From contig JAYZBV010000057.1 of assembly GCA_036338595.1 (NCBI GenBank), positions 1 to 58,750 of the forward strand: 58,750 nt of DNA, written 5' to 3'. This document shows positions 10,272 through 58,750 of the stretch, piece after piece. Source of the DNA: Planctomycetota bacterium (GTDB lineage: Bacteria; Planctomycetota; UBA8108; UBA1146). Numbering within the stretch: the first letter of the stretch is position 1; each line of letters begins with the position of its first letter. Below the pieces are notes generated by a model, which worked only from the letters and a program-made list of their open reading frames with translations, had not been told where the DNA came from and did no database searches. The position numbers and the translations under genes were made by a program.

Positions 10272-12755
10272 ATGGCTCTGATGAATATGTTGGCGCTGGT
10301 ACTCTCACTGGTTCTGGCAGCGGAAGCGATTTCCGCCCAGTGCTTGCCCACCTCCTGGGTCATCTCGGGAGTTGTCGTCGACTCGAATGGTGACGGGGTT
10401 GCCGGTGTTGATGTCGACATCATTTCCCTGTCTACAGGTCAGCCGCTGGCTCTGAGCCAGGACTTCACCTTGTTTGACGGTAGTTTTTCGCTCGCGATCT
10501 GCGAGACGGTGGCGCCTGGTTTCTTCGATGTCATCTTCCAGGTGAGTCCAGCCGATCCATTTTTTGACCTGTCGCTTCAGACCGTGAGCCTTTCGGGGAA
10601 CAGCGATCTGGGAACCGTGGTCCTGGACGATGCAGGGATCGTTTCCGGCACTGTCGTCAACGAGGTGGGCGTCCCTCTGGAGTTCGTCGATCTGGATTTC
10701 TTCGATCCTGTCTCGGGTCAGCCGACCGTTTTCTCGGGTGATACCACCGATTCAAATGGCAACTTCTCGGTAAAGGTGACCCCTGAGTTCTGGGATGTCC
10801 GGTTCACAGCCGATCCGGCGAGCAGTCCTGTTGACCTTGTGCCGGTTCTCCGCTCCGATCTTGCTGTGTTTGGATCGACTCCTCTGGGAAACGTGGTGCT
10901 GCGAAACGGATACACGCTCAGCGGAACCGTGCTGGATGGTTCTGGTTCTCCCGTGGTGGATGGGGACGTCGATGTCCGAGATCCAGTAACCGGCGATAAG
11001 TTGCTCACACCTGGGGACAACACCGATGGTTCCGGAGTGTTCAGTGTGCTGGCTCCTTCAGGGGACTGGCAGCTGGAAGTGGACCCACCTCAGGGTTCGA
11101 TGCTGGTGTCGAGTCTGACGGCGATCTCGATCCCTGTTGGCGGCATCAATCTAGGAGTCTTGACTCTCCCCGATGGTTTCTCGGTCAGTGGCAGCGTGGT
11201 GAACTCCTCGGGTCAGGTGGTCCCTGAAACCGATCTCGATTTCTACATCTCTGCAACCGGTGTAGAAATTCCAACCGCCCATGATAACGCCAACTCTTCC
11301 GGCGTATTTTCAGTTCAGGTGGTTCCCGATACCTACGACATTGCATTCAGACCTCGGTTCATCAGTGGTGCTGCACCTGTCGTGCTTGAAGATGTGGTCG
11401 TTGCAGGGAATACCGATCTTGGAAGCGTGTTGGTGCCCCCAGGATTTGCGCTGACCGGCACGGTAGTGGCAGGGTCCACTCCGGTGGCGGAAGTTGAGAT
11501 CACACTCACTGATAGCAGCACCGGGGTGCCGGCGTATACCTTTGGAAATGACACGGATGGACTGGGAGGATTTGCCCTGCGCCAGGTAGCCGGCACCTAT
11601 GATGTGACTGCCACACCTCTTGTCGCAACCGGATTGAATCCTGTCGTGGTCCTGGATCTGGTACTCGGTCCGGATGTCAACATTGCGATCGATCTACTGG
11701 GGGGTGGCACACCAATTCCTCCTGACCCGGTCGTCGCTCTCGAGTGCGTGCTCAATTCTGGATCCGTGCAACTCGATTGGACGCTGGGAAACCTCGATTA
11801 TGACCAGATTCAACTCACCCGAGGTGGAAGCATCCTTGCTGATCTGCCTGGAGATATTACTGGTTATCTCGATGTCAATGCGCCGCAATCGCTGCTCGAA
11901 TATTCGGTGATTGCGATCCGCGGTGGACTCACCAGCCCTCCGGAATCGTGTCTGGTCGACAACACACCTGTTGTTACTCCGCCGCCGCCAGTGGTGGCCC
12001 TGGTGTGTGAAGTTGTCGCGTCAGGCGTCGATTTGCTGTGGACCCTCGGCGCCCCGGACTACGATCTCATCCAGGTGACACGAAATGGAGTCTTCGTCAG
12101 TAACCTCGGCGGCAGCGTGACCCAGTATTCAGATCTCTTTGCTCCTGCTGCGATCCTCGAGTACTCGCTGACGGCGATCCGAAACGGCCTGGTCAGCACG
12201 CCTGAACTGTGTACCGTCGACAATACTTCTCCTGTTCCGAGTCCGTCTCCGGTGACAGATCTCCAGTGCGAGCAAGTCTCTGGAGGGGTCTCCCTTGCCT
12301 GGCAAAATGCAGATCCGGATTACGACAACATTGAAATCTGGATCGATGGCACGCTGCTGACGATTCTTGCGGGACAGGAAACCACCTTTCTGGATGCCAA
12401 CGTCGCGGTGGGGTCGCATCAGTACCAGTTGATCGCATGGAGAAATGGCCTGGAGTCCGGTCTGACCAGCTGCGATGTCGATGTCACCTCGGTCGGCCTC
12501 ACCTTCCTCAGAGGTGACGCAAATGAGGACCTGGTCATCAATCTCGGCGATGTGATCTCGATACTCTCCTATCTGTTCGCATCCGGGCCGGCCCCGGATT
12601 GTGTCGATGCCCTCGACACCAATGACTCTGGCGGTGTTAACATTGCCGATGCCATCAATGAACTGAGTTATCTCTTCAGCGGTGGCCCTCCGCCTGCGCC
12701 TCCCTTCCCTGATGTGGGAGTCGATCCGACACCCGATTCCCTTCCCTGTCCCTGA
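10272..12755 (+). CDS. Secreted repeat protein: 5 carboxypeptidase-regulatory-like beta-sandwich repeats, 3 FN3-like repeats, C-terminal dockerin-like module
   Basis: Signal peptide; repeats SG.V.D..G.PV...D.D; repeats L.C......V.L.W....DYD.I...R.G; FLRGDAN...DTNDSG tail. Confidence 0.75.
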   Translation: MALMNMLALVLSLVLAAEAISAQCLPTSWVISGVVVDSNGDGVAGVDVDIISLSTGQPLALSQDFTLFDGSFSLAICETVAPGFFDVIFQVSPADPFFDLSLQTVSLSGNSDLGTVVLDDAGIVSGTVVNEVGVPLEFVDLDFFDPVSGQPTVFSGDTTDSNGNFSVKVTPEFWDVRFTADPASSPVDLVPVLRSDLAVFGSTPLGNVVLRNGYTLSGTVLDGSGSPVVDGDVDVRDPVTGDKLLTPGDNTDGSGVFSVLAPSGDWQLEVDPPQGSMLVSSLTAISIPVGGINLGVLTLPDGFSVSGSVVNSSGQVVPETDLDFYISATGVEIPTAHDNANSSGVFSVQVVPDTYDIAFRPRFISGAAPVVLEDVVVAGNTDLGSVLVPPGFALTGTVVAGSTPVAEVEITLTDSSTGVPAYTFGNDTDGLGGFALRQVAGTYDVTATPLVATGLNPVVVLDLVLGPDVNIAIDLLGGGTPIPPDPVVALECVLNSGSVQLDWTLGNLDYDQIQLTRGGSILADLPGDITGYLDVNAPQSLLEYSVIAIRGGLTSPPESCLVDNTPVVTPPPPVVALVCEVVASGVDLLWTLGAPDYDLIQVTRNGVFVSNLGGSVTQYSDLFAPAAILEYSLTAIRNGLVSTPELCTVDNTSPVPSPSPVTDLQCEQVSGGVSLAWQNADPDYDNIEIWIDGTLLTILAGQETTFLDANVAVGSHQYQLIAWRNGLESGLTSCDVDVTSVGLTFLRGDANEDLVINLGDVISILSYLFASGPAPDCVDALDTNDSGGVNIADAINELSYLFSGGPPPAPPFPDVGVDPTPDSLPCP

Positions 12756-13031
12756 GTAGCTCAGTCCCACCTCTGAAGTGATTTCGCCCTGGCGAATGTT
12801 AGTTTTACTTCCGAACGATACATCGTTTCTCTCGGCCTCGTTTCCGTTGCCATCGTTGCAAGTGTCCACTTGATGGAACTCGATTTCCTCGATCTACTGC
12901 CGGGGCATCGGGGGCTCCATGGCGGGCTTCCGCATCCGTTTGCGCCCACGGACCAGGGATCCGACCGTAGTTCCACTGGATTGAGAGACAAATCCAAACT
13001 GCCTATCAACCTGGGAAGGTGTACCTGGCCC

Positions 13032-15287
13032 GTGCGTACCACTCCCATAATCATTCTCGGAACATTGCTGTTGCAGTTCACATCACTTCTACATGCAGAC
13101 ACCCTTACATTTCAGGCGGGGGTTTTTAGCCACAGTCAGACCACCGATACATGGTTACAGGGTGCGGTGGGAAATGCAGATCACGACACCAATTCGGTCA
13201 TCGAATGGGACGGCTCCGATGCGGGGGGACAGAACTTCCTGATCATCAGGTTTGATGACATCTTCGGGTCGCTGCCGGGGCAGATTCAGTCTTCAGACGT
13301 GATCACATCCGCCACTCTCTCTTATACCTCGATCGACCCCGGTGATGCGGCGACGGTCAACGAGATCGAGATCGACTGGTCTCCACCATCTCCGACAACA
13401 TTCAATAACTTTGGAGCCACTGCTGGAGTGCAATCGGAAGATTATGGATTTGAGGTCGGATCCGCGCTCGGTGCTACCGGGCCGCAGTCCATCGATGTTC
13501 GGCACAGTATCGAACAGTGGGCGATCACCCCTGTCAGCAACCGTGGTTGGATATTCCGGCCGACCGGTGGAACTAATGGAGCGGTGTTGCGAAGTAGCGA
13601 GGCGACTCAGACATCAGAGCGACCGAAACTCACGGTCGTCATCAACGAAGGTGCGCCACCTCCCGCATCGGTGCTGCGTGGTCCGTATCTTCAAAGGGTC
13701 ACGCCTGAGTCGATCACGGTTCGCTGGAGAACTGACACGGCAACGACCAGTGGCGTGCGCTTCGGGGTCGATGCAGGCTCATTGACTGGATTCGTATCTA
13801 CATCGACCACAACGAGCGACCATGAGGTTGCGCTGACTGGCTTGATGCCAGATACCCGCTACTACTATGCCATCGGTACGGCAGACCAGGACCTGGCCGG
13901 AGATTCCTCAAATCACTTCTTCGAAACCTCTCCCATCTCGGGATCTTCGACCCCCTTTCGTGTGTGGACGATTGGAGATTTCGGAACTGCAAATAGCAGT
14001 CAGGCACTTGTGCGAGATGCTTACTATTCCTATTCGGGTTCGACATACACTGATCTGTGGCTATTGCTGGGGGATAACGCCTATCTCTCTGGCACCGAGT
14101 CCGAGTATCAGGCTGCGTTCTTCAATGTTTACCAGCAGATGATGATCCAGACACCGTTTGCCTCGACACGTGGAAACCACGAAACGATGCCATCGGTCTA
14201 TTACGGACTGGTCACCAATCCGACCGATGGACTCTCCGGAGGAGTCGCTTCCGGGACCGAAGCGTTCTATTCCTTTGATTTTGGCAATGCGCACTTCATC
14301 TGTCTCGACTCGGAAGGGTCGGACCTATCCCCAACCGCGCCGATGTTGACCTGGCTCGAACTCGACCTCGCCAGTACTGCTCAGGATTGGATCGTCACTT
14401 TCTTTCATCATCCTCCCTATACCAAGGGAACCCACGATTCGGACAACGTGGCTGACAGTGGCGGCCGGATGAGAGATATGAGAGAGAACGCATTACCGAT
14501 CCTCGAGGCGGGAGGTTGTGACCTGGTGCTGTCGGGCCATAGCCATGTCTACGAAAGATCGTATCTGATCGACGGACACGATGGCGACAGCGGAACCTGG
14601 AACCCCGCAATCCACCTCGTTGATGGCGGTAACGGAGATCCGGACGGAGACGGGGGATACCAGAAGGACTCGTCGCCGAATCAGGGCACCGTGTACATCG
14701 TCATGGGATCGAGCGGCACGGTGGGAAGCGGATCGCTGGATCACCCGGCAATGTACTACTCAGGATCGGTACTCGGGTCTTTGGCACTCAACTTTTCTGG
14801 CCCCAACCTCGATGCCACGATGGTCCGAAGCGATGGGAGCTACGAGGATGTATTCAGTATCTCCAAGGGGCCACCGCCCGACTGCAATAGCAATGGCGTT
14901 GCCGATTCGGTGGACCTGGCCTCGGGTACCTCAACTGATTGTAATCTCGACGGTGTTCCAGACGAGTGCCAGGGGCCTGACGACAACGGCGATGGGGTTC
15001 TTGACGTCTGTCAGGGCAGTGCTTTCATTCGAGGTGATGCCAATCAGGATGGCGGCCTGGATATTTCCGACCCGGTCTGGATGCTGGAGTATCTGTTTGC
15101 CACTGCTCAGGTCAGTTGCCTGGCAGCCCTCGATTTCAATGATGACGATCTGCTGGATCTATCGGATGTGATGGGGGAGTTGATCTTCGTCTTCCAGGGG
15201 GGAGTACCACCAGGGTTTCCCTACCCCGACTGTGGCATTCCTGCGGGAACCATCGGCGGTTGCGACTCATTTTCTATCTGCCCCTGA
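13032..15287 (+). CDS. Secreted purple-acid-phosphatase-type metallophosphoesterase (DNRLRE-like, FN3, phosphoesterase, DCNxNG repeats, dockerin-like)
   Basis: GTG start MRTTPIIILG..LHA signal; RPKLTV; RGPYLQ; GDFG, GDNAY, GNHE, HHPPY, GHSHVYER; FIRGDAN tail. Confidence 0.85.
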   Translation: MRTTPIIILGTLLLQFTSLLHADTLTFQAGVFSHSQTTDTWLQGAVGNADHDTNSVIEWDGSDAGGQNFLIIRFDDIFGSLPGQIQSSDVITSATLSYTSIDPGDAATVNEIEIDWSPPSPTTFNNFGATAGVQSEDYGFEVGSALGATGPQSIDVRHSIEQWAITPVSNRGWIFRPTGGTNGAVLRSSEATQTSERPKLTVVINEGAPPPASVLRGPYLQRVTPESITVRWRTDTATTSGVRFGVDAGSLTGFVSTSTTTSDHEVALTGLMPDTRYYYAIGTADQDLAGDSSNHFFETSPISGSSTPFRVWTIGDFGTANSSQALVRDAYYSYSGSTYTDLWLLLGDNAYLSGTESEYQAAFFNVYQQMMIQTPFASTRGNHETMPSVYYGLVTNPTDGLSGGVASGTEAFYSFDFGNAHFICLDSEGSDLSPTAPMLTWLELDLASTAQDWIVTFFHHPPYTKGTHDSDNVADSGGRMRDMRENALPILEAGGCDLVLSGHSHVYERSYLIDGHDGDSGTWNPAIHLVDGGNGDPDGDGGYQKDSSPNQGTVYIVMGSSGTVGSGSLDHPAMYYSGSVLGSLALNFSGPNLDATMVRSDGSYEDVFSISKGPPPDCNSNGVADSVDLASGTSTDCNLDGVPDECQGPDDNGDGVLDVCQGSAFIRGDANQDGGLDISDPVWMLEYLFATAQVSCLAALDFNDDDLLDLSDVMGELIFVFQGGVPPGFPYPDCGIPAGTIGGCDSFSICP

Positions 15288-15339: not shown

Positions 15340-16323
15340 TCAGCAGGCGTTGTAAAGAGCGCAGAAGAGCGTGTCGATGTTGGTTTCATCCCAACCGCAG
15401 GAACCTGGCGTGGGAGGAGCGGGCATCGTGCCTCCGCTGAACAATGCAGCGAGGGTGAAGATCGCATCGGCAATATTGATGCTCCCATCATCGTTTGAAT
15501 CGCATGCATCGCCGCAACTACCTGAAACTCCACCGCCAAAGAGCGAATCCAGTGAAAAGATGGCATCTGCGATGTTGAAAGAGCCATCGGTGTTGCAATC
15601 CCCGCGCTGGAATTCTGGTCCCAGAGGATCCGCCAGGGGGAACACTTCATCGAATGAGACAACAGCACCCGTTGTGGATGTGAAGATGGTAGTGACACCA
15701 AGGTCTCCACCCGCCGGCGAGTGTCGATAAATCGGCTCGGTGGTCCAGATCAGCGGGACATCGAAATCCAGAATTCCAGTGAGCGGCAGGCTGCCCGCAT
15801 CCGTGACACTCATGGTGCCGCCCGTGTCATCCGGAAGGTCAGCGAAGAGTACATCAAATGCTATCTGACCTGTCGGGTTGGGGAATCCCAGCAGGGCGAG
15901 ACCCGCCGCAACATTTCCGGTGATCTCCGTGACCATTGCAACAGCCTCCATCGTGTCGGAGCTGACAGCACTGATCTGAACCTCGGCGATGATCTGTCCG
16001 GCGACGATGACGACAGGAGTTTGAATGAAGATGTCGAAGACAGCACCGCCGACCTGCTGACCGGGAACGAAGCCGACGAAATCAAAGGAGCCTCGATCGA
16101 ACTGAACCACGAGGCTCGAGGGGCCTTCACTGCCCTCGGGAAAGAGCACATCCTGACTGAACCCACTTGCGAAGCCGCCCTGCAGGTTATCGAAGGAAGT
16201 GGTCACCGATGGGTCGAACTGTGCAGAACAGGGGGTGGCTATCGCCAGTGTTGCGAGCAGCAACCCATGGCACAGGATCGTTGAGACTGATCGAGAATGT
16301 TCGATACTCACCTCCCCATGCAC
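15340..16323 (-). CDS. Secreted protein: unknown ~200 aa domain + dockerin-like module (paralog of 16330-17301)
   Basis: Signal peptide ..PCSAQF; FQRGDCN..DSNDDG tail. Confidence 0.75.
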   Translation of the reverse strand: MHGEVSIEHSRSVSTILCHGLLLATLAIATPCSAQFDPSVTTSFDNLQGGFASGFSQDVLFPEGSEGPSSLVVQFDRGSFDFVGFVPGQQVGGAVFDIFIQTPVVIVAGQIIAEVQISAVSSDTMEAVAMVTEITGNVAAGLALLGFPNPTGQIAFDVLFADLPDDTGGTMSVTDAGSLPLTGILDFDVPLIWTTEPIYRHSPAGGDLGVTTIFTSTTGAVVSFDEVFPLADPLGPEFQRGDCNTDGSFNIADAIFSLDSLFGGGVSGSCGDACDSNDDGSINIADAIFTLAALFSGGTMPAPPTPGSCGWDETNIDTLFCALYNAC

Positions 16324-16329: not shown

Positions 16330-17301
16330 TCAGGGACAGTTGTTGTTCAACTGGAGACAGGTCAGCAATCCCGGAGTTGGATCTTCGCCACACACACCAT
16401 GGGGCGCAGGAGGCGCAGCTCCGCTGCCGAAGAGTCCACTCAGGCAGAAGACCGCATCCGCAATGTCGACACTGTTGTCGTCATTGGCATCGCAGGCCAG
16501 TACGCAAGGAACCGAGCCGTTGCTGAACAAGAAGCCGAGCATGGTGATCGGATCGCTGATATCAAAACCACCATCTTGGTTGGCGTCGCCTCGATTGAAC
16601 TGATCCGGAGAAGCGCCCCCATTGAGCGGGAAGACCTCGTTGAAGGAGGCCTCGATGCCAGTCGTCGAGGTGAGTAGCGTTTCGACGACGAGATCTCCTC
16701 CCAAGGGGGAGTGAGTGAGAATGGGAGCAGTTGTCCAGGTCAGTGGAATGTCAAAATCGAGATTGCCACTCAGCGGCAGAGTCCCTGCATCGGTGACATT
16801 CATGGTGGCTCCGGTGTCTCCGGGAAGATCGGTATAGAGGACATTGAATGCGGTATCGCCGATGTTGAGATCAATCCCGAGCAGCGAAAGGCCTGACGAA
16901 ACATTTCCCGTGATGTCGGTGATGACTGCGATCGCCTGCATCGTATCGGGACCGACCGAGGTCACCTGAACATCCGCAATGATGTCCCCTGAGATGGTGA
17001 CGAAAATTACACTGACGAAGACCTCGACGACCAGACTTCCCACCAGTTGTCCTGGAGCATATCCGGAGAAATCAAAGGAGCCGCGGTCGAATTGAATCAG
17101 CATCGAAGAGGGTCCCTCTTGACCCTCGAAGAAGAATCCATCCTGGATGAACCCACTCGCTTGCCCCGAATCGAGATTGTCGATACTGGTCGACAGGGTC
17201 GGATTGAATTGCGCCTGGCAGGGAGTGGGGATGGCGAGGAACACCAGCAACCAGCATCCGCACAGCAATAAGAGCGATGATCGGGAGAACGGAACTGGCA
17301 C
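16330..17301 (-). CDS. Secreted protein: unknown ~200 aa domain + dockerin-like module (paralog of 15340-16323)
   Basis: Signal peptide ..PCQAQF; shares EGPSS..QFDRGSFDF and DAG.LPL.G.LDFD.PL.WTT with its neighbour; FNRGDAN tail. Confidence 0.75.
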   Translation of the reverse strand: MPVPFSRSSLLLLCGCWLLVFLAIPTPCQAQFNPTLSTSIDNLDSGQASGFIQDGFFFEGQEGPSSMLIQFDRGSFDFSGYAPGQLVGSLVVEVFVSVIFVTISGDIIADVQVTSVGPDTMQAIAVITDITGNVSSGLSLLGIDLNIGDTAFNVLYTDLPGDTGATMNVTDAGTLPLSGNLDFDIPLTWTTAPILTHSPLGGDLVVETLLTSTTGIEASFNEVFPLNGGASPDQFNRGDANQDGGFDISDPITMLGFLFSNGSVPCVLACDANDDNSVDIADAVFCLSGLFGSGAAPPAPHGVCGEDPTPGLLTCLQLNNNCP

Positions 17302-18892: not shown

Positions 18893-18904
18893 GGCATTGC
18901 TCCA

Positions 18905-21649: not shown

Positions 21650-21751
21650 TATTGTGCGTTCCCTCCCATGAGCCTTGTGAAGCGGCGATGTCGTGCCGAC
21701 CCTCACGATTCCAGGGTACCACGCGATATCGACTCGTAGGAGCGGGGGCCT

Positions 21752-26741: not shown

Positions 26742-26750
26742 TCGAAAACC

Positions 26751-27662: not shown

Positions 27663-28940
27663 ATGGAAATCGACACACTGATGCTACGGAGGTTGCTGAT
27701 GAAGTCCAAAAAGCATCTGGTCTGGGTCGCGGGAGTGCTGGCGCTGATCGCAGCCTGGACCAGCGGCTCGCTACTGCTACTCCATGCCGAGAAAGATGCC
27801 GACCTTGGACTGCTGGCAGCGATCTGCTCCGCAACCGAGGACGGCTGCGCCTCGGTGGTCAACAGTCGCTGGGGAGTGTTGCCTCCGGGGGATAAGGGGT
27901 CTGATGGACCCCACGATGGTTTTCCGGTCGCAGCACTGGGTTTTCTCTACTATGCGCTTCTGGCGAGCTGGTACCTGCTGATCGGTATTCCCGACCCGGG
28001 GCGAATGTGGTTGTCTCGGATGGTGCTCTACCTCAACGCCCTCGGTGTCGTGGGGTCGATCATCTACACCGCACTCATCTTCTTTGCCATCGGAACGGCC
28101 TGTTTTCTGTGCCTTCTCACGCACGCCTGCAATATCGGGATTTTCATCGTCTCGTGGTTATTGAGGCCGAGGCAAAAAGAGCCCCGTGGTGGCGGATCGC
28201 CTTCGAATCGGTTGCTGGCGGCGAGTGCAGCGACGCTGCTGCTGGCATGCGTGGCCCAGTGGGGGGTCTTCGAGGCTGGCCAGGAGCGCGCCCGGTTCCA
28301 GTCACTGGAAGAGGAAGTTCTCGAACTGAGGGTATTCGCCAGCGATGTTGAAAAAGTGGAGACGGTGCACCGGATCCAGAAAAAGAACGACATCGAAGTT
28401 CGAAGCGATGATCCCACCATCGATGCTGTGGGTGGGTTGCACTACGGACTGGTGATCTTTTCCGATGTGGAGTGTCCCAATTGCGCGCGCTTCGATGAAT
28501 ATCTCAAGCAGACGATTCTTCCCATCTGGAGCGGCCATCTGAAGGTGATCTGGAAGCACTACCCCAACACCTCCGAGCATCCGAATTCGATGCAGGGAGC
28601 CAGAGCACTCGAAGCTGCGCGATTACAGGGCAAGTTCTGGCAGTTGAGGGACTGGCTGCTGCCGCGGCGCGAATCGCTGGGGGTCGTCAACTGGAGCCAG
28701 GCGGCCACCGAACTGGCGATGGATCCCGATCGATTCCTGAAGGATATGCAAAGTGCCCAGGTCACGAGGAGAATCGGGCAGGATATTTCTCTGGCTCGCA
28801 AGTTAGGGGTCAAGGGCACGCCTGGCGTCTACCTCAATGGGCGCCTGGTGAGCCGACTGATGCGACGCAGTGCCGGGTTCTGGGAGCTCCAGAGCGACAG
28901 TTTGAGGGAGATCCGCGACAGTCGAGGCCAGGATTGGTGA
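27663..28940 (+). CDS. VKOR (vitamin K epoxide reductase-like) - DsbA/thioredoxin fusion
   Basis: C(SATEDG)C..V..S.W loop, TM helices, CFLC redox motif; C-terminal FSDVECPNC, WKHYP, GVKGTP. Start may be 27681 or 27699. Confidence 0.85.
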   Translation: MEIDTLMLRRLLMKSKKHLVWVAGVLALIAAWTSGSLLLLHAEKDADLGLLAAICSATEDGCASVVNSRWGVLPPGDKGSDGPHDGFPVAALGFLYYALLASWYLLIGIPDPGRMWLSRMVLYLNALGVVGSIIYTALIFFAIGTACFLCLLTHACNIGIFIVSWLLRPRQKEPRGGGSPSNRLLAASAATLLLACVAQWGVFEAGQERARFQSLEEEVLELRVFASDVEKVETVHRIQKKNDIEVRSDDPTIDAVGGLHYGLVIFSDVECPNCARFDEYLKQTILPIWSGHLKVIWKHYPNTSEHPNSMQGARALEAARLQGKFWQLRDWLLPRRESLGVVNWSQAATELAMDPDRFLKDMQSAQVTRRIGQDISLARKLGVKGTPGVYLNGRLVSRLMRRSAGFWELQSDSLREIRDSRGQDW

Positions 28941-35225: not shown

Positions 35226-35251
35226 AGAGGTGTGTGTTCAGGTGAATCATC

Positions 35252-48957: not shown

Positions 48958-51900
48958 TCAGGGGCAGTTGTTGTACTCGGCGCAGTCGAGATTGTCCGCA
49001 GTTGGATCCTCACCGCAATCTCCGAATGGATCCGGAGGATTGTTACCACCGCTGAAGAGGGTGCCGAGGATGAAAATGGCATCGGCGATGTTGATAGAAC
49101 CGTCGTCGTTGGCATCACAGGCGTCGACACAGGTGCTGTCAGGACCTCCCGAGAAGAGGTTTCCGAGCAAGAAGATGGCATCAGCGATGTTGAAGCCGCC
49201 ATCGGCGTTGCAGTCACCGCGCTGGAATCCAAGCGTGGGAGGAGACCCTCCACCGGCCAGGAAATCATGATATGCGGCGATGAGAGCATTCTGATCACCC
49301 TGGTAGCCACCCAGTTCGAAACTGGCGCAGATCACTCTAGCCCCGTTATCGGGGATGTAGGCGGTGGTGGTGCCTTGATCGACACCGAGGGCATCATCGT
49401 AACGCCACACCAGTCCGGCAGATCCTCCGGCCAGTTCAGCAGTGGCAGGAATCAGGTTGTCAGTGAAGTCATTGGCATTGCCAGTGGCTGCCTGGTTGTC
49501 CTGATTGTAGGCCACGTTCTGCAAACTCGACATGTCGAGGCCCATTCCGGAGTCGACCCCGTCGAGAGAAGTGAGCAGGTCGTTGTCATCCTGAGAGTAG
49601 GGCTCGGCAACTCCGTCTCGATCGTCGAAAGAAGAGATCGGATGGTTGAAGCTCCAGTGGTCAGTGCTCTCGAAGTAAATGGCAACACCGGCTGATGCAA
49701 GATCAGCGATGACGTTGGCCTCGTCCGAGTTGAGCAGGAAATTGGTCGGCCAGGTACCGCAGGCGATCCACACCTGGCTGACTCCGCCAGAGTTGATACA
49801 AGCGTAATCATCGATCTGCATTCGGATCAACTTGGCGTTGGCACCGCCAGCCAGAAGCCCGGCCAGCATCGTTGCTCCTGAATCATTGCTGCCCGTATCA
49901 CCACCGCTGAACAGGCCTTCCATGGCGACCACAATTGTATCTTCGCCGTTGTAACTGAAGTGATCGACGAAGCCGATGGCCTCAGCAGCGCCGACAGCGC
50001 AGATACCGCGTACGGTGTAATCGTGGAGGCCATCGCTGGGGCCACCATCGGAATAGGTCGTATCCGTGCCCGCGACGGTGGCCACAACGACTCCATCCCG
50101 TTCGATCTCGATACTGTTGTAAGTCGCGCTGTTGATCCAGGAGAGTTCTACGGTGTTGGTATTGCAGTCGCTGGTGATGATCAGATCGCCAGGTGCATCA
50201 CACTGGGCCGGGCAAACCTGGATTGCCCAGTTACTAATGATGCCGCCGGTACCAGGCACCGTGTCCGCGACGGTCAACGTCCAGTCTCCTCCGATGCTTT
50301 CGCCATCGAAGTCGGCGAGTGAACCGGGTCCTGAGGGGATCAGAGTGCCGAAACCGTCATTGTTGCCGGTGGCATCGTCGTAGCGACCGAACAGGTCAGT
50401 TCCTGCTCCATGGTCGTGCAAGCGGACCGAGGTTCCCTGTGGGGAGAGCAAATCCACTTCCAGGTCGGATGTGTCGTTATGGGCGACATCGATGTCCACA
50501 TCCAGATCGTTGATCCCGGTCAAGTCAGCGGGATCGACAGAGATCACATGGTCGCTTGCAGAAGTTCCATCGGGAATGTCCTGTGGTTGGCTGATGAATA
50601 GCCCCCAGGACTCGAGGGTTCCTCCTGCGGATCCACTGAAAGTATCGGCGATGACTATCGCCCAGACCCCGTCAACAGGCTCACCATTAAAATCGGCGAG
50701 GCTTGCGGTGCCCTGTGAAAGATCATAGGGCTGCATTCGTTCACCGCTGTAGGTCGTTACGCTACCGTAGGGTTGTCCGTCATCATCGAAGATCAGCAAC
50801 ATGTCGTCGTCTGAATTCGTTTCATTCTGATAGAGGCGGATTTGCGTCTGGGACGGTCCGATCAGGTCGATGTCCAGGTTTCCGATGAAGGCATGGGAGA
50901 TGTCGATGGCGACATCCAGATCCGCGATGTCACCTGAAGCTCCGCTGAGATCGATGAAGTCAAAGTCCGGCACCGGGGGATCACCGACGTAGTCGATGGG
51001 CATTCCGGGTGAACTACTGGCGGTTGTTCCGACAAATCCAAGCAGTTCGATGTTTGGATTCGGGAACTGGTGACAGTCAGCGGGGGGACAAAGGATGGTG
51101 AGAGTTGCATTGCCACGCTCTCCGTTGAAGCCGCCAAACTGGATCAGATAGTCCTCTCCGGCGATGGCGTCGAGCAAGATCTCCGGTTCTCCCGATCCGG
51201 TGCAACTGCCCGCATCACAAGCGATTTCTGAACCGGTAGCAGGTGGACATTGACCACTGCCGGGGTAGATCGCCATCTGGGGATTGAAGTCTGCGCTGCC
51301 ACAAGTCGTCACGGTCACGATGCCACTGCAGGTGGCGCTGTAGAGTACCCACACATCGTTGAGAAGGCTGCCGCCACAAGTGGTCGGGCCATCGGTGGAG
51401 GCACCGAGAGTGGTCAGGTTGTAGGCACCTTCGATAACGTTGGTGGCATTGGTGCAGTCGTCATTGGCAGGAGGGGGGGCGCAACTCGGATCGCCGGCAC
51501 AGTCACTGTCGGCGCAGTCGACATCTCCATCGCCATCATCGTCGGTACCGTTATCACAATCCTCCGGGCAAGTATTGGAGGAGCCGGGAGTATCAAAGGG
51601 CTGGCCAAGATCTGCAAAGGGGAGAATCTCCCAGGAGCCGTTTGCATCGGGACAACGCACGATATGTGCCGGAACGAAGGTCCCATCGGGGCCGATGGTA
51701 TTGGGGCTGTAGATCAGTTCTCCCGCGCTGGTATTGCCAGTAATGGGATCGATGGGATCCTCGAGAAGTGCGATGGAATCGACGATAGAAGTCCACGGGG
51801 TGCTGTCGAGGTTGCCATCGTCGTCGGTGTCCAGGTCATCCCCTACAGCTCCGCTGAATCCCTCCACCAGCATGTGGGTCACGTTGTCACCGTTCTCGAA

Positions 51901-52221
51901 GTTGAGATCTGTCGTCAAGTCGGCCAGGCCGATCGTGAAGGTGGATTCGGCCGCTACGAACAGGCCACTGGGGGGGACGATCACACCAAACAGACCGACG
52001 ACAGCTTCGACGGTTCCGCTACCTGTGGATCCATCTCCGATCACTATGTAAGTGAGCGTCGAGATCGAACTACCCGCGGGGACTGACAGTTCAAAATACT
52101 CATCATTATCAGTACTCGATTGATCGATACGAATCTCATTGATCGTGACCTGACCGTCGAGCAGAGCAGGGCTCAGAATGAGCGACAACAATAGTATCGA
52201 TGCAAAAAATGGACTCTTCAT
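48958..52221 (-). CDS. Secreted multidomain protein: lamin-tail-like, Cys/Asp metal-binding repeat, PPC-like, 2 proprotein-convertase P-domains, FN3-like, alpha/beta domain, dockerin-like
   Basis: Signal peptide; INEIRID..EYFEL; DCDNGTDDDGDGDVDCADSDC; 2x DLDV.IDI.H....L.IDL..P.GT..RL..LADF.GE...G.W; FQRGDCN tail. Confidence 0.8.
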   Translation of the reverse strand: MKSPFFASILLLSLILSPALLDGQVTINEIRIDQSSTDNDEYFELSVPAGSSISTLTYIVIGDGSTGSGTVEAVVGLFGVIVPPSGLFVAAESTFTIGLADLTTDLNFENGDNVTHMLVEGFSGAVGDDLDTDDDGNLDSTPWTSIVDSIALLEDPIDPITGNTSAGELIYSPNTIGPDGTFVPAHIVRCPDANGSWEILPFADLGQPFDTPGSSNTCPEDCDNGTDDDGDGDVDCADSDCAGDPSCAPPPANDDCTNATNVIEGAYNLTTLGASTDGPTTCGGSLLNDVWVLYSATCSGIVTVTTCGSADFNPQMAIYPGSGQCPPATGSEIACDAGSCTGSGEPEILLDAIAGEDYLIQFGGFNGERGNATLTILCPPADCHQFPNPNIELLGFVGTTASSSPGMPIDYVGDPPVPDFDFIDLSGASGDIADLDVAIDISHAFIGNLDIDLIGPSQTQIRLYQNETNSDDDMLLIFDDDGQPYGSVTTYSGERMQPYDLSQGTASLADFNGEPVDGVWAIVIADTFSGSAGGTLESWGLFISQPQDIPDGTSASDHVISVDPADLTGINDLDVDIDVAHNDTSDLEVDLLSPQGTSVRLHDHGAGTDLFGRYDDATGNNDGFGTLIPSGPGSLADFDGESIGGDWTLTVADTVPGTGGIISNWAIQVCPAQCDAPGDLIITSDCNTNTVELSWINSATYNSIEIERDGVVVATVAGTDTTYSDGGPSDGLHDYTVRGICAVGAAEAIGFVDHFSYNGEDTIVVAMEGLFSGGDTGSNDSGATMLAGLLAGGANAKLIRMQIDDYACINSGGVSQVWIACGTWPTNFLLNSDEANVIADLASAGVAIYFESTDHWSFNHPISSFDDRDGVAEPYSQDDNDLLTSLDGVDSGMGLDMSSLQNVAYNQDNQAATGNANDFTDNLIPATAELAGGSAGLVWRYDDALGVDQGTTTAYIPDNGARVICASFELGGYQGDQNALIAAYHDFLAGGGSPPTLGFQRGDCNADGGFNIADAIFLLGNLFSGGPDSTCVDACDANDDGSINIADAIFILGTLFSGGNNPPDPFGDCGEDPTADNLDCAEYNNCP

Positions 52222-52486: not shown

Positions 52487-55400
52487 CTAGCAAGCGCCGT
52501 AGTCACACTCATCCAGACCATCGTCGGATGGGTCTGGGCCACAGTTCGTCGGTCCCGGATCCCCGGGGGCGGGTCCGCCCGAGAAGAGAGCGGCCAGGCC
52601 GTAGATGGCATCGGCGATGTTTACGCCACCGTCATCGTTCTGGTCGCAAGAGTCGGGACAGAGACATGGATCTCCACCGGAGAACAGTGCAGCGAGCAGG
52701 AAGATCTGGTCAGCGATGTTGAAGCCACCATCTTGGTTGGCATCACCACGCCTGAAGACAATCTGACTCGCCCCAAATGCATCGTGGTAGCGCTGGGCGA
52801 GAATCGTCTGATCCCCACCGAAGCCGCCGAATTCCCAGCTGGTACTGATGGTCTTTCCGCCGGAATCGGTGTTGTAGAAGATACCCGTGACGTAGTTGGT
52901 TTCCGGTGCCGGCGAAGGAATACTACCGCCGAAGACGCCATCCGGATTGTTTTCCCAGATCGCTCCCGCATTCGGTCCAGCAGCATCGCTGGTGGCCGGG
53001 GTCAGGATATCGGTCCAGTCATCACCGAGACCGAAGTCCTGGGTGTAGGCCGCTCCAGCGAAATCACTGGTATCGAGTCCGAAGCCACTATCGAGGCCGT
53101 TCATCGAGGTGTAACTGTCATCTCCGTCACCTGTGTCGTAAGTCGAATCGTCGTTGCCGTCACGCGAATCGAACAGTGATGCAACGTGGGCGAAGCCGAA
53201 GTGGTCGCCACCTTCGAAGTAAACGTTTTTACCGTCGATGTTGGCCTGCCCGATGGCATCACCTTCTGCTTGGTCGATGCGGTAATCGGTCGGAACCGTT
53301 CCGGTCATCACCCACAAGTTGGCGACACCGGCATCGTTGGCGCAGGGGTAATCGGCAATCGAAGCGCGGACCATTCCGACATCGGCGCCGATAGAGGTCA
53401 GGGCAGCCAGCATGGCGCTACCACTGTCGATGTCACCAAAGTCGCCGTTTTGCTGCAGACCTTCCATCGCCAAGACGATGTCGGTCTGACCGCTGTAGGT
53501 CAGTACGGAAACAGGCACCACGACAGGATTCGGGCCGCTTCCACAGTCACCGATGATCTCATAGACGTGATCACCGTCAGCTACGCCGAGGTCGACATAA
53601 GAGGAATCTGTGGCTGGAGGATTGGCGATGGAGACACCGTCTCTGGTGATTTCCATCGATGCATAGTTCGGGTTCGCAGTCCAACTAAGGGTTACGTCAC
53701 CGTTGGTGCAGTCTGCCGAACCACCAGCGCCTGCCGGAGGAATGCAGTCATTGATGGTCAAAGTTCCATCACCGAGACCCGCCTGGTTGAAGGTACCGAC
53801 ACGGATCATGTAACTCTGTCCGGCGATTGCGGGGAACAGGAGTTGCGCGGCAAACCCGCACAGCGGGTTGCCAGCAGGAGGCGCAGTTCCACCAGGTGTG
53901 GTGGCACCGGTTTCCGCGTCGTCGTTACACATGATGACGTTTGCGGAGTCGTCGCTGTTGCAATCGCTGTAGACCGCGAGGCGGGTATCAAAGATGGTTC
54001 CACCGCAGGTCGAGACCAGCACGTCGCCGGTGCTTCCAGCGGTGTAGCAGTAGTAAAGGTCGTTGAAGATGCCATCGTTACCGATGTTCATGGCGCAGAC
54101 GGCCGGATCAAGATTGGGTCCGGTGGTCAGAACCGCGTTGGTGATACTGAAATCGGTGTCACCGACTGCGATCGCCTCAGCACCCTCGAACCAACTGTTT
54201 GCCGGAGCGGTGTTGAAATCACAACCGGCGTAGTTGATCTGTGCTCCACCTCCCGTGGATCCTCCGGGAGCATCGTAAGCGGCGATGAAACACTGCTGTA
54301 TCTCATAAGCAGTTTGGGGATCGGTCTGGAAAGTGGTTGCCGTGCCATCCAGGGTTGCGACGATATCACCGTCGACTTCAACCTCGTAGGAGCCGATGGG
54401 ACCAACCGGGTCCCAGTTCAGATCCCACTGGGTGGTTCCGGGAGTCTGCTGACAGGTCAGGTTTGAAACTCCACCTCCACAGGTGCAAGGACCAGCACTA
54501 TCCCAGGCGATATCCATGATCCACATGTTGGTCGGGAATCCGAGCCCCACCATGTCGATGGGATTCGTCAGTCCACAGGCCGGAGCGAGAATGTAACTGC
54601 CACCGATCTGGTCGGCCGTGGTGGTCGTAGCAGGATCGGGCATCCCCATGAACAGGCTGTGGCCGGCGGCTTGTCCGTCAGGAGTGAAGATCTCGACGAC
54701 AAGGGTTTCCCCATCGAGACAACCGATGACGGTCGAAGCGGAACCCGCGAGGGTTCCATCCGGATCCACCACGCCAGTTCCGAGAACGAAGTTGTAGAGT
54801 TCATTGGCGACCACGGGGACCTGGAACAGTTCCTCGTAGACCATGGTCATCGAAGTCAAAGGCCCGACGGCGCCACCGTTGGCATCGATGTTCAGACGCA
54901 CGCGCACCGGTTGGGTGGTGCCTGCAGCCGGGTTCGAATTGAAGACGGTCGTGACGCACTTGACATCGATGTTCTCGACGACCGAGTAGTTGTTACAGAG
55001 ATCGTAGGCGCGGTAGTAGTGGTTATCAGCATGCAGTCCACCAGCGTTACAGGAGACGGCTCCGCCAAAGGGTTGGTTAGAAGGTACGGGTACCAGAGTG
55101 GCCCCGGAGGTGGCGGGACATGGAGTCGAGAAGAAGTAAGAGCATGTCGTAGTCGGAGCAGTTGACCCTCCCGATTCGCCAACGGCAATCAGGGTGTGCC
55201 CACCATCGGCCGCAGGTGAGTAGAGGAAACTGTTGTTTCCACCGGCGCCAACACCAGCAACGGTGGTGATCAGATTTGCCGGATCGACGGCATCGAGATA
55301 AATATTGACGTTGTCGTAGAAAACGTCCTCGGTCCACTCCATCAACACTTCGTTGGTTCCAGTGCTTTGGTCAGGTGTACAAGCAAGGTTGCTCACCGGG

Positions 55401-55885
55401 ATCAGACTGCTGAATTCGATCGTCAGATTTCCGGTTCCGACGGAGGCTGCATCCCAGCCACCGATACGGATGTAGTAATCAGTGTTGGCTTGAACGGGGA
55501 AAATGTCGACGAAGGAAGAGAAACCCGCACAACCGGCTCCGTCACCGTTGCAAGCGACAGTCGTTTGAGCGCCGCAAGCACCGGTGCTAATCAGGATGTC
55601 TGTATCAAAGGTGACATCGTTGCAGGTTGACATCGTCACTATGCCATCTTGGGCGGGGTTCCAGACGAACCAGATGTCAGATTCGCAGGTTCCTATGGCT
55701 GTGCCAGCACATGCTGCATCGTCGATAGGATCTGCGCTGGTTGTTGCCGCAGTGTTGTCAATCGGGGTAACGGAAGTACCGCTCACGAATGGAATCGCCA
55801 CTGCACTTGCACACTCGTCCTGGGCCAACGCTACGGTTGGCATCACAAACGAAAACACAACTCCCATGATAATAAGAAAACGCAT
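52487..55885 (-). CDS. Secreted multidomain Cys-rich protein (PPC-like x2, FN3-like repeats, unknown domains, dockerin-like)
   Basis: Signal peptide ..ALAQD; STC..FDT..ACN.D repeats; FRRGDAN tail. Confidence 0.8.
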   Translation of the reverse strand: MRFLIIMGVVFSFVMPTVALAQDECASAVAIPFVSGTSVTPIDNTAATTSADPIDDAACAGTAIGTCESDIWFVWNPAQDGIVTMSTCNDVTFDTDILISTGACGAQTTVACNGDGAGCAGFSSFVDIFPVQANTDYYIRIGGWDAASVGTGNLTIEFSSLIPVSNLACTPDQSTGTNEVLMEWTEDVFYDNVNIYLDAVDPANLITTVAGVGAGGNNSFLYSPAADGGHTLIAVGESGGSTAPTTTCSYFFSTPCPATSGATLVPVPSNQPFGGAVSCNAGGLHADNHYYRAYDLCNNYSVVENIDVKCVTTVFNSNPAAGTTQPVRVRLNIDANGGAVGPLTSMTMVYEELFQVPVVANELYNFVLGTGVVDPDGTLAGSASTVIGCLDGETLVVEIFTPDGQAAGHSLFMGMPDPATTTTADQIGGSYILAPACGLTNPIDMVGLGFPTNMWIMDIAWDSAGPCTCGGGVSNLTCQQTPGTTQWDLNWDPVGPIGSYEVEVDGDIVATLDGTATTFQTDPQTAYEIQQCFIAAYDAPGGSTGGGAQINYAGCDFNTAPANSWFEGAEAIAVGDTDFSITNAVLTTGPNLDPAVCAMNIGNDGIFNDLYYCYTAGSTGDVLVSTCGGTIFDTRLAVYSDCNSDDSANVIMCNDDAETGATTPGGTAPPAGNPLCGFAAQLLFPAIAGQSYMIRVGTFNQAGLGDGTLTINDCIPPAGAGGSADCTNGDVTLSWTANPNYASMEITRDGVSIANPPATDSSYVDLGVADGDHVYEIIGDCGSGPNPVVVPVSVLTYSGQTDIVLAMEGLQQNGDFGDIDSGSAMLAALTSIGADVGMVRASIADYPCANDAGVANLWVMTGTVPTDYRIDQAEGDAIGQANIDGKNVYFEGGDHFGFAHVASLFDSRDGNDDSTYDTGDGDDSYTSMNGLDSGFGLDTSDFAGAAYTQDFGLGDDWTDILTPATSDAAGPNAGAIWENNPDGVFGGSIPSPAPETNYVTGIFYNTDSGGKTISTSWEFGGFGGDQTILAQRYHDAFGASQIVFRRGDANQDGGFNIADQIFLLAALFSGGDPCLCPDSCDQNDDGGVNIADAIYGLAALFSGGPAPGDPGPTNCGPDPSDDGLDECDYGAC

Positions 55886-56128: not shown

Positions 56129-58138
56129 TCAGGGGCAGCCGGGAAAAATGCCACACTCCAGGGCGTCAGAAGGGGTCAAATCGACCCCGCAGCGCTCCGG
56201 AGGTGGCGGCTGTGGGGAATCCGGGATGAACAGGTAAGAGAGCAGAAAAATAGGGTCAGCCAGGTTCAGTCCGCCGTCGTCATTGCAGTCGCCGCTGTCG
56301 GAGCATTCCAGCGCAGTATTTCCTGGCAGAAACAGGGCCTGCAGCAGCCAGATGGCATCGGTCAGGTTGCGGACGGAATCTCCGTTGGTGTCTGCTCTTA
56401 TGAAGAGAGTGCCGAGCGGATCTCCGATCAGGTCGATCCCGATATGAGCCCCTGAATATCCGAGATCAGAGAACGGGGTCGGTTGGCCGATGCCGCAGGA
56501 GGGGGCCGAGTGCCAGGCTTCTGCAGTTTCGGCCGCTGAGTTCGACCCCAGCACCAGCAGGTGCTCTTCGACGGTCGCATCCAGGAGAGCGATTTCCACC
56601 ACCAGGGTCGTATCGCAATCAACTTCGAGGGGCGGGATGAGATTCAGACACATATGTTGGCTCGCCAGTTGAGGTACCTCGAACGATTGCTCGTGAAGTA
56701 ACTGCAGTGAACTGACCGGGTTGATAGATCCGCCATCGACATCCGAGTGCAGTCGAAGCAAAAGCGGCAGAGTGGCCGACCCCGGCCCGGGGTCAGATTC
56801 CTCGATGGCGATCCGAATCGCCTTCAGTTCGAGACCGGCAGGAAGATCGAAGGGAGGCTGGCATGGATCATAGATGCGCCAGTAAGACTGTGCCGCATGT
56901 CCGCTACCGGCGGCGCAAACCGCTACACCATCGTTGATGGTGTCGGGGTCACTCAGATGGGAGAGGTGATATACACCCTCGTCACAACCCGGGATCAGCA
57001 GTTCGCAACTACTAGTGGGCGTCCATTGCTGGTTCGTATGCCCACACGCCTGCACCAGGATGACATCGGGGAAGTTAGGAGACGCTCCGACCCATTGTCC
57101 CGCAGATCCCGAGGCGGTCCCGGCGAGTAACCCATCGATGCGGATCTCCACGATCTCGAGGCCTGGATTGACATCCCAGCTCACCTGGATATTTCCCGAG
57201 ACGTCTGCACGGCAACTGAAGCCGACCATCGGCGGCAGTTCTTCGGGGCATTGAGAGCGTCCTTCGATGGCATAGAGGTTGTTTGACGAGTTGTCGACGA
57301 TCCATATCGAGTAGACACCGAAGGGGTCTGCTGTGGGAGCAACTGCCGGACGCGAACTCTCGATGCCGTTGATGAAGAAACCAATCGAAGCCACTTCCAG
57401 CGGGGCCAGGGGTACATCGGTGAGCGGATTGACGGTCGAGATGGTCGTGACACGTCCGGCGAAGTCGCTGCCGTGAGGGATCTCCAGATGTCCACAATCA
57501 CTGCGAAAAGCCACGCCGTTTCCCGCCCCCGCAGTGTCGGGATGGAGTACGCTTGGCCCCAGATAACTGCCATCTTCGATGGAGATCCGATCATATTGTT
57601 CGCCAGCGATATCGACGGCCCAGATGCCGTCAGTTCCATCCCAGGCCATTCCCCCGACAAAACTGGTCACCTGCAGGCCCATCGAACCTAGCAGTGTCGG
57701 ATTCGATCCGTTCAGGTCGGTTTGCCACAACTGACTGGGTCCCGGAGGAGCAAGGACGCCCCAGTAGAGTGAATCGCCATCGGTCGTGATGCCTGTTGTG
57801 GTGAATCCGGGAGCAGGATGCCCAATCGTGCCGATCGGTTCGAGGGTGAGCGAGTCGTAGACCCAACTCTCGGGGCTGAACAACTCGACAACGATCACCG
57901 CTGCGGTTCCCCAGGGGTTTGGTGTCGGAATGTAACAACATCCCAGAGCACTTGAGCCTTGCAGGGGAGCCGGGCCGGCCAGGATGTCACCGGGGATCAC
58001 CGAGGAGCCAAGATTGGGTCCCGGGGGTGCTGTCGGCACTGAACTCAGAACCGACTGAGCCGGGCAGAGCGAGCCGTACAGCCACATCACTGCCACGCAC
58101 ATACAAGTTGTCAGGATACCTGAAAATCGGAGCAACAT
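56129..58138 (-). CDS. Secreted protein: beta-propeller-like N-terminus, FN3-like, unknown domain, dockerin-like
   Basis: Signal peptide; repeats TGITTDGDSLYW / GGMAWDGTDGIW; FIRADTN..DCNDDG tail. Confidence 0.72.
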   Translation of the reverse strand: MLLRFSGILTTCMCVAVMWLYGSLCPAQSVLSSVPTAPPGPNLGSSVIPGDILAGPAPLQGSSALGCCYIPTPNPWGTAAVIVVELFSPESWVYDSLTLEPIGTIGHPAPGFTTTGITTDGDSLYWGVLAPPGPSQLWQTDLNGSNPTLLGSMGLQVTSFVGGMAWDGTDGIWAVDIAGEQYDRISIEDGSYLGPSVLHPDTAGAGNGVAFRSDCGHLEIPHGSDFAGRVTTISTVNPLTDVPLAPLEVASIGFFINGIESSRPAVAPTADPFGVYSIWIVDNSSNNLYAIEGRSQCPEELPPMVGFSCRADVSGNIQVSWDVNPGLEIVEIRIDGLLAGTASGSAGQWVGASPNFPDVILVQACGHTNQQWTPTSSCELLIPGCDEGVYHLSHLSDPDTINDGVAVCAAGSGHAAQSYWRIYDPCQPPFDLPAGLELKAIRIAIEESDPGPGSATLPLLLRLHSDVDGGSINPVSSLQLLHEQSFEVPQLASQHMCLNLIPPLEVDCDTTLVVEIALLDATVEEHLLVLGSNSAAETAEAWHSAPSCGIGQPTPFSDLGYSGAHIGIDLIGDPLGTLFIRADTNGDSVRNLTDAIWLLQALFLPGNTALECSDSGDCNDDGGLNLADPIFLLSYLFIPDSPQPPPPERCGVDLTPSDALECGIFPGCP

Positions 58139-58340: not shown

Positions 58341-58365
58341 CGCTCCATCACACCCGCTTTGCTTT

Positions 58366-58750
58366 TTAGCAAGCGTTGTATGTCACGCAGTCGAGGGGAT
58401 CCGTATCGGTTCCATCTTCACCGCAGTTACCCGGACTGGGCGGAGCCGGTGGTGGGCCGCCACTGAAGAGAGCAGCCAGGGTGTAGATGGCATCAGCGAT
58501 ATTGAGTCCGCCGTCATCATTTGAGTCGCACGAATCGGCGCACGGCCCGGCGGGGCCGCCGCTAAAGAGCGAGGCGAGGGTGTAGATGGCATCGGCGATG
58601 TTGAAGGAGCCGTCGGCGTTGCAATCGCCACGCTGGAACTCCGGTCCTGAAGGGCTGCCACCACCACCAAGGGCCGCGATGTATCGCGCTGCCAGGTCGG
58701 CCTGATCGCCGCCAAATCCACCAAACTCCCACGACTGTGAGATGGTGTTG
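58366..58750 (-). CDS. C-terminal fragment of another dockerin-like protein (gene starts beyond the window)
   Basis: Not in the ORF track. Manual translation: NTISQSWEFGGFGGDQADLAARY...GPEFQRGDCNADGSFNIADAIYTL...CVTYNAC*. Confidence 0.85.
   Translation of the reverse strand, partial: NTISQSWEFGGFGGDQADLAARYIAALGGGGSPSGPEFQRGDCNADGSFNIADAIYTLASLFSGGPAGPCADSCDSNDDGGLNIADAIYTLAALFSGGPPPAPPSPGNCGEDGTDTDPLDCVTYNAC

Follow-up and report, generated by a model that had tools for sequence, protein, structure and literature searches.

A predicted cohesin-dockerin system without recognisable cellulases across a class of Planctomycetota

The 58,750-nt contig JAYZBV010000057.1 of a Planctomycetota genome bin (GCA_036338595.1), hereafter the window, encodes eleven proteins that end in the same cysteine-capped module. 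We identify this shared tail as a predicted Ca2+-binding dockerin of type I-like sequence, and two genes of the window additionally encode predicted cohesins. Together, the two modules appear to define a real, class-wide and non-cellulolytic cohesin-dockerin system with a new type of anchor and an unusual scale, the folds of both partners being predicted. The system is likely a branched assembly in which about 120 exported proteins dock on about 67 predicted cohesins, with lipoprotein stalks as its likely tether to the cell surface. Coordinates without a prefix refer to the window, and "G000" denotes the 2.9 Mb bin to which it belongs.

Dockerin modules in the window

Scanning the window for motifs in six frames revealed the double calcium-loop motif at the C-terminus of 11 open reading frames (ORFs), and their alignment bore out the shared module that a first-pass annotation had described in the same eleven genes. 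A twelfth ORF, which lies on the opposite strand of the 15340 gene, has only a single loop-like match. The tails span 96 aligned columns with a mean column identity of 59%, for a module of about 90 residues. Fifteen columns are invariant, including Cys36 and the acidic positions of the two loops. The consensus given in the annotation holds overall and fails in two details: two of the cap cysteines are absent from the 10272 tail, and DPT from that of 13032. Signal peptides had been reported for all ten complete genes, and a hydrophobicity rule combined with judgment by eye indeed finds a Sec-type N-terminus in 10/10. That of the 13032 gene was called by eye, the rule having chosen a stretch upstream. 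The eleven genes and a probable accessory gene are as follows.

10272..12755, + strand: secreted immunoglobulin (Ig)-like repeat protein with three or more CarboxypepD_reg domains; dockerin 12495-12752
13032..15287, + strand: purple-acid-phosphatase-type metallophosphoesterase with a DNRLRE domain; dockerin 15015-15284
15340..16323, - strand: secreted protein with a domain of about 200 amino acids (aa) without known family; dockerin 15343-15621
16330..17301, - strand: paralogue of the 15340 product, 55% identical; dockerin 16333-16608
23832..26741, + strand: second purple-acid-phosphatase-type metallophosphoesterase; dockerin 26466-26738
27663..28940, + strand: VKOR-DsbA fusion for disulfide formation, probably an accessory of the system
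29217..30587, + strand: non-catalytic adaptor with signal peptide; cohesins 29292-29801 and 29817-30320; dockerin 30315-30584
30990..35225, + strand: M4 (thermolysin-family) peptidase and adaptor; cohesins 33948-34445 and 34452-34949; dockerin 34947-35222
48958..52221, - strand: secreted multidomain protein with two proprotein-convertase P-domains; dockerin 48961-49236 (the copy folded)
52487..55885, - strand: secreted multidomain protein without Pfam family; dockerin 52490-52765
56129..58138, - strand: secreted protein without Pfam family; dockerin 56132-56413
58366..58750, - strand: partial gene (3' end), truncated where the contig ends; dockerin 58369-58647

The cargo named in the annotation stands: Pfam gives two phosphoesterases, a thermolysin-family M4 peptidase and Ig-like and P-domain repeats, and no glycoside hydrolase. 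Both dockerin-bearing phosphoesterases have intact motifs and the peptidase has HEFAH.

The type I dockerin architecture proposed in the annotation is supported by loop residues, a structural model and profile matches. Of the calcium-binding loop positions (1, 3, 5, 9 and 12), the first three hold D/N in 86-98% of 142 copies and the last holds D in 100%, counting both repeats. An AlphaFold2 model of the dockerin at 48961-49236 (pLDDT 87.9; helices at 17-29 and 50-62) aligns to solved dockerins with Z 10.3 and a root-mean-square deviation (rmsd) of 1.6 Å over 70 residues, and dockerins occupy ranks 1-14. Foldseek also ranks dockerins first, with an E of only 0.015, and a profile of 35 tails matches dockerins of the PDB down to E 3.3e-6. 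Model confidence is low for the Pro/Cys cap, the final 20 residues, which most structural matches do not reach. Comparison with the Pfam dockerin model PF00404 gave weak scores on two of the window proteins (17.5 and 20.2) and 0/11 above the cut-off of 22.9 bits, which 8/91 of the other carriers scanned pass.

Cysteines follow a consistent pattern. Cys36 is kept in 140 of 142 near-full copies. Two pairs of cysteines tend to be present together, Cys9/Cys40 (p 2e-20) and Cys75/Cys92 (p 2.5e-13), and Cys86 then remains as the partner of Cys36 (124/140). This co-occurrence points to disulfides Cys36-Cys86, Cys75-Cys92 and, in a quarter of the copies, Cys9-Cys40, and the module is thus likely disulfide-stapled. 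The positions expected to govern recognition, namely 10-11 (I/L/V and A/S/G), 17 (L) and 21 (F), look alike in the two repeats and also between cohesin-bearing and other ORFs. These two sets of ORFs (44 vs 98 copies) show no clear division into two kinds of dockerin, which does not prove a single specificity.

Genome census and spread across the class

The annotation had suggested counting the tails genome-wide and across the phylum. A hidden Markov model (HMM) of the 11 tails finds 143 ORFs with 145 domains in the bin, which is 88.3% complete. A second round adds none, and the reversed ORFs of the genome give 0 matches. The bin also holds 23 contigs (197 kb) that repeat other contigs with about 69-89% identity; C18, C22, C32 and C52 mirror the window. 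These duplicates are DNA of a related species, about 70-80% identical, and they inflate gene counts, so counts without the 23 contigs are preferred to raw counts. The preferred count is 124 dockerin ORFs, covering 9.4% of bases from stop to stop. Dockerins occur in 41/41 genomes sampled from genus to class, with >100 matches in 40 and at least 127 in most. In a phylum sample of 221 genomes, with 23 candidates scored per genome, 12/12 genomes of the class have at least 23 matches and 5/209 genomes outside it have 1-5. Both modules are thus expanded class-wide with few dockerins elsewhere in Planctomycetota, as cohesins occur in 59/59 genomes of the class, with 10 to at least 63 matches each. 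We take this class to be GTDB UBA8108.

An assembly artefact was rejected as an explanation of the window. Window positions 23000-36000 are covered in DNA runs of two other studies (30/30 and 27/30 bins), where long pieces are about 99% identical or more. More broadly, 68-95% of the window's sampled words occur in 18/24 listed runs from 7 studies, which are marine or seawater metagenomes where labelled.

The census also bears on whether the tail might be a lineage-specific C-terminal export or sorting signal, similar to the C-terminal domain (CTD) of the type IX secretion system (T9SS) and perhaps cleaved at the outer membrane, as the annotation had offered as an alternative. Such a signal would explain why 137/145 copies lie within 30 residues of the C-terminus and why 123/127 carriers have a signal-peptide-like N-terminus by the hydrophobicity rule. 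The tail shares with the T9SS CTD a mostly C-terminal position on many unrelated secreted proteins. The T9SS CTD is a beta-sandwich that is removed on export, whereas a helical module with two Ca loops is predicted here, and it is found at N-termini too. Eight of the 145 copies are N-terminal or internal, two proteins bear a dockerin at both ends, and the module is found on an inner-membrane anti-sigma factor. The predicted dockerin fold and the cohesins in the same genome argue further against a sorting role, which we consider the least probable of the readings. PorP/SprF and Por_Secre_tail were found in 0/5 genomes, in a search where no control genome was positive either.

Cohesins and adaptors

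The 29217 ORF consists of a signal peptide, two 165-residue domains and a dockerin, and the 30990 ORF carries two more such domains ahead of its dockerin. The domain at 29817-30320 was folded (pLDDT 96.3) and is predicted to adopt the nine-stranded beta-sandwich of cohesins. Foldseek matches it to cohesins with E 4.8e-8, and alignment to solved cohesins gives Z 15.9 and an rmsd of 2.1 Å over 137 residues, with ranks 1-20 all cohesins. An iterated HMM from the four window cohesins finds 71 domains in 45 ORFs of the bin, 42 of which carry a dockerin; the 70 domains besides the folded one were assigned by this HMM. Without duplicate contigs there are 67 cohesins in 41 ORFs. The 39 with a dockerin divide into 18 with one cohesin, 16 with two and 5 with three, and the two- and three-cohesin ORFs are mostly non-catalytic. 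Multi-cohesin-dockerin ORFs are present in all five genomes of other orders that were checked. The Pfam Cohesin model touches 3/38 members and passes its cut-off once in the genome. Standard annotation therefore misses the system, with 8/102 dockerins and one cohesin above the Pfam cut-offs.

The cohesins average only 22% identity, and small or apolar residues are nonetheless kept at outward positions of strands 3, 6 and 8. In solved complexes, the dockerin-binding face of cohesins is formed by strands 8-3-6-5. Mean outward conservation is 0.40 on the corresponding sheet and 0.20 on the other sheet (p 1.7e-4; 13 vs 16 positions), with inward and outward residues set by hand from strand alternation and not from coordinates. 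A complex prediction for cohesin 29817-30320 and dockerin 48961-49236 scored 0.07 and 0.06 against a mark of 0.32. It covered one of thousands of possible pairings, with alignments as both inputs, and is not used either way.

The dockerin might by now be a stand-alone Ca2+-binding or stabilising cap, with the cohesin folds serving as spacers or adhesins that rarely bind it. The ratio of dockerins to cohesins of about 2 to 1 and the low identity among cohesins would fit such a history. However, both modules are jointly expanded in one class and nearly absent outside it, the outer face of one cohesin sheet is conserved, and among complete cohesin ORFs the only one to lack a dockerin is a lipoprotein. 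We regard loss of binding on this scale as very improbable.

In the window the VKOR-DsbA gene immediately precedes the adaptor gene, and the same order recurs in 16/17 related loci, the 17th being cut; this adjacency may reflect simple inheritance. Non-catalytic cohesin-dockerin adaptors also form tandem arrays, with nine genes at G000:C15:21355-37220 (L008) and four at C19:45243-51118 (L009). Proteins with a dockerin-cohesin-dockerin layout are encoded at G000:C40:3041-4255 and 9116-10375 (L010) and could cross-link branches into a mesh.

Functions of dockerin-tagged proteins

The Pfam scan covered 102 of the 143 carriers; those outside it were 29 ORFs that are fragments or little more than adaptors, 6 lying on duplicate contigs and 6 paralogues. 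Adhesin-like repeats, oxidoreductases with haem or copper, and domains without family make up most of the cargo across the genome. By family there are 15 FG-GAP, 3 HYR, 4 PKD and 6 P-domain proteins, in addition to cadherin-like and lectin domains, and the HYR adhesins carrying dockerins reach 2,300-2,800 aa. Haem cargo includes five CCP_MauG proteins (di-haem peroxidase family) and two DHOR proteins. Hydrolase-type cargo consists of two M4 and one M12B peptidase, two phosphoesterases, endonuclease I and penicillin amidase, and an arylsulfotransferase is also tagged. No family besides the dockerin was assigned in 41/102 carriers, and 3 have beta-helix-type domains. One dockerin ORF bears a lamin-tail domain. 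An additional NCBIfam run on 30 proteins yielded an MnxG-like multicopper oxidase at 885 bits, below the cut-off of 3100. The tagged oxidase is encoded at G000:C47:1689-7874 (L068) and measures 2,061 aa from stop to stop. No glycoside hydrolase was found by Pfam in the 102 of 143 dockerin ORFs scanned. Glycoside hydrolase family GH5 was not found in the bin (control positive in 6/14), nor was the lytic polysaccharide monooxygenase family PF03067 (control positive in 1/14).

A cohesin-docked complex for phosphorus and nitrogen scavenging had been the first suggestion of the annotation. The complex gained support from cohesins in two window genes and about 40 more ORFs and from lipoprotein anchors. 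Scavenging proved too narrow a description because the cargo across the genome is mostly adhesins, oxidoreductases and family-less domains. A dedicated scavenging complex would stand near the peptide-degrading "planctosome" proposed for freshwater Phycisphaerae. The two phosphoesterases and the M4 peptidase of the window point in this direction, as do the second M4 peptidase, the M12B peptidase, endonuclease I, the amidase, P-domains and the lamin-tail domain elsewhere, families named in the excerpts of PMC6461901. Yet hydrolases are a minority among the 102 carriers, next to 15 FG-GAP, 7 di-haem and 41 family-less proteins, and a third purple-acid-phosphatase-type enzyme of the window (LamG and Metallophos; 43249-45156, + strand) has no dockerin. 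Such a restricted role is improbable.

Anchors, export and cellular location

Three cohesin ORFs of the bin lack a dockerin, and two of these run off contig ends. The third, G000:C84:4357-5811, carries three He_PIG Ig repeats between a lipobox and a terminal cohesin. Used as a query, it matches 31/41 genomes, all within the order, many matches being to the Ig repeats alone. Gene order was followed in 12 regions of relatives chosen for matching the anchor. A complete 3-repeat anchor is present in 11/12 regions and a long anchor of 9-30 Ig repeats in 11/12, with a terminal cohesin detected in 9; one of the other two long anchors is cut and one falls below threshold. In 10/12 regions a short and a long anchor stand in tandem ahead of a cohesin-X-dockerin gene, and no anchor has a dockerin. 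Most anchor cohesins keep the consensus face. Two ORFs of the bin with a lipobox-like start also carry a dockerin (C15:37328 and C53:32395).

We suggest that the exported proteins would cross the inner membrane by Sec. Oxidation by VKOR-DsbA would close Cys36-Cys86 and Cys75-Cys92, plus Cys9-Cys40 in a quarter of the copies. A machine resembling a type II secretion system (T2SS) might then export dockerin and cohesin proteins outward, and a T2SS-like cluster with secretin, GspE, GspF and pseudopilins is encoded on C111. Lipoproteins with 3 to 30 Ig repeats would hold one terminal cohesin each at differing heights, and adaptors, each pairing a single dockerin with two or three cohesins, would multiply docking sites stepwise. 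With broad specificity, one adaptor would dock on another, and the branching would have no fixed size. Dockerin-only cargo would cap the branches with adhesins, lectins, peptidases, phosphoesterases, a nuclease, and haem and copper oxidoreductases. Such a coat would serve attachment and scavenging in general and would not be a cellulosome.

The same network might instead lie in the periplasm, as a scaffold spacing the membranes and organising redox and hydrolytic enzymes in the enlarged planctomycete periplasm. Evidence for this comes first from an anti-sigma factor of the zinc-finger (zf-HC2) type that has a membrane helix and ends in a dockerin (G000:C33:5297-6157; L061, L180; relatives L186-L207). 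The gene is single-copy in 21/41 genomes, all within the family, with an extracytoplasmic function (ECF) sigma gene adjacent in 22/24 loci. CxxCH haem motifs occur in 9/143 dockerin ORFs, and the anchors are plain lipoproteins. The haem cargo and the pairing of ECF sigma factor and dockerin anti-sigma keep the periplasmic location under consideration. Against it stand the cadherin, PKD, lectin and FG-GAP adhesin cargo, the giant HYR adhesins and the MnxG-like oxidase, the latter two being kinds that act outside cells. Stalks reach 30 Ig repeats, the T2SS-like cluster is present, and haem proteins can mature in the periplasm and then be exported. A purely periplasmic scaffold is therefore unlikely.

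Several observations nevertheless weigh against a surface-tethered assembly. The anti-sigma factor has a membrane helix, so its dockerin would face the periplasm, and the di-haem proteins are usually periplasmic types. Lipoprotein sorting in this lineage could also leave the anchors facing inward. The C84 anchor query matches 0/10 genomes of other orders, the tandem anchor operon was not found in the bin (88% complete), and the cohesin of the C84-type anchor strays from the consensus face at some positions. The bin is 7.2% contaminated, and the assignment of face residues by hand, noted above, belongs here as well.

The surface assembly might be taken further. A class-wide, undescribed envelope layer could form as a hyperbranched, open-ended protein polymer grown from lipoprotein stalks of graded length by one-dockerin adaptors bearing two or three cohesins, with a single shared specificity and >100 interchangeable cargo proteins, in which the anti-sigma factor senses free periplasmic cohesin to tune supply. 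This extended version is possible, though we would sooner doubt it than expect it. For the anti-sigma factor itself, the dockerin could sense free cohesin.

Beyond the cluster on C111, G000:C100:68000-83500 (L176) encodes two TPR-fused secretins with PilM-like, TPR and ExbB/ExbD genes. Five secretins in total pass the cut-off in the bin.

Comparison with known systems

Comparisons with published systems draw on excerpts of the cited papers. The planctosome of the freshwater Nemodlikiaceae is a hypothesis with one anchor, one adaptor, two kinds of peptidase and a lamin-tail tether (PMC6461901). Both systems are planctomycete cohesin-dockerin systems without cellulases, with an anchor, an adaptor and peptidase cargo, and the P-domain, HYR, lamin-tail and M12B families of the planctosome recur here. 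Dockerins are borne by zinc peptidases here too (two M4, one M12B). In contrast, the present system belongs to another lineage and is far larger: it counts about 124 ORFs with dockerins and 41 with cohesins, and it has multi-cohesin adaptors and anchors of the lipoprotein-Ig type. A planctosome-type anchor combining lamin-tail, P-domains and cohesin was not seen among the scanned proteins, and no genome-wide search for it was made.

Cellulosomes of Bacillota (C. thermocellum, A. cellulolyticus, R. flavefaciens, P. cellulosolvens) share the same two predicted folds, the logic of anchor, adaptor and cargo, and a comparable scale, with 32 scaffoldins, 79 cohesins and 212 dockerin ORFs in P. cellulosolvens (excerpts of PMC6507058). 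The modules described here are nearest to type I and to R. flavefaciens group 1 modules, and both non-catalytic multi-cohesin scaffoldins and lipoprotein-Ig-cohesin anchors are present. The host, in contrast, is a marine diderm, no glycoside hydrolase cargo was found among the carriers scanned, and the dockerin has a cysteine cap. The anchor is of lipoprotein type instead of the SLH or sortase type, scaffoldins hold a maximum of 3 cohesins in the bin and 4 in one relative (L142), and adaptor and cargo dockerins show no clear split into two types.

Non-cellulosomal relatives are known from Ca. Stygibacter (PMC8542988), Limihaloglobus sulfuriphilus (PMC11557425), Saccharophagus degradans (PMC2386152) and the NagJ/NagH proteins of C. 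perfringens (PDB 2ozn). They likewise use cohesin-dockerin pairs beyond cellulose breakdown, some of them in diderms. All are small, the inventories given being one scaffoldin with 13 dockerin proteins, 6 cohesin and 2 dockerin ORFs, and one large scaffoldin, and none is described in these excerpts as a class-wide expansion over about 9% of the genome. No published description of such a planctomycete expansion was found among titles and the beginnings of abstracts, in a search outside of which most subscription papers fall. Dockerins and cohesins go unmentioned in the excerpts of PMC11131199 and 10.1101/817700, and the comparison also took in excerpts of 10.1101/2023.11.21.568195.

Assemblies this large are otherwise described, in the literature excerpted here, from anaerobic cellulose degraders. 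A marine diderm with a small genome here devotes about 9% of its DNA to dockerin-tagged proteins without recognisable cellulases, and every genome sampled from the class follows a similar pattern. If the modules bind, the planctosome idea would become directly testable with small recombinant domains, and diderms would have a new way to organise their surface. Binding would further provide disulfide-stapled cohesin-dockerin pairs, likely orthogonal to the clostridial pairs used in enzyme-display engineering.

Other features of the window

Between the dockerin genes, 17414-21706 (- strand) encodes a planctomycete-typical gene pair of DUF1501 and DUF1549/DUF1553 (PSCyt2/PSD1). A domain of about 230 aa precedes the dockerin in the 48958, 52487 and 58366 genes alike. 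Searching the ESM Atlas with the pre-dockerin domain of the 52487 gene returned unnamed clusters or DUF4960-like leads only, and the same search with the 15340 domain gave no match.

Gln follows the predicted signal cleavage in 9/10 window genes and, by a crude pattern, in 83/123 carriers genome-wide, a count made on dockerin carriers alone. The residue next after this Gln is Ser in 39 and Thr in 33. The pattern resembles the pyroglutamate "Q-rule" of Bacteroidota. Plant-type glutaminyl cyclase (PF05096) was not found in 5/5 genomes; the M28 type was not searched.

Two metatranscriptome runs of one study contain short contigs that partly cover the adaptor and peptidase genes. Their identity is mostly 90-95%, which indicates a relative as the source, possibly its DNA, and they are not taken as evidence of expression. 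Named relatives of the 29217 gene come from marine metagenome-assembled genomes, mostly titled "Planctomycetota" and including "Planctomycetes bacterium UBA1146". The nearest relative (92%) is titled Bacillota, which is likely a mislabel.

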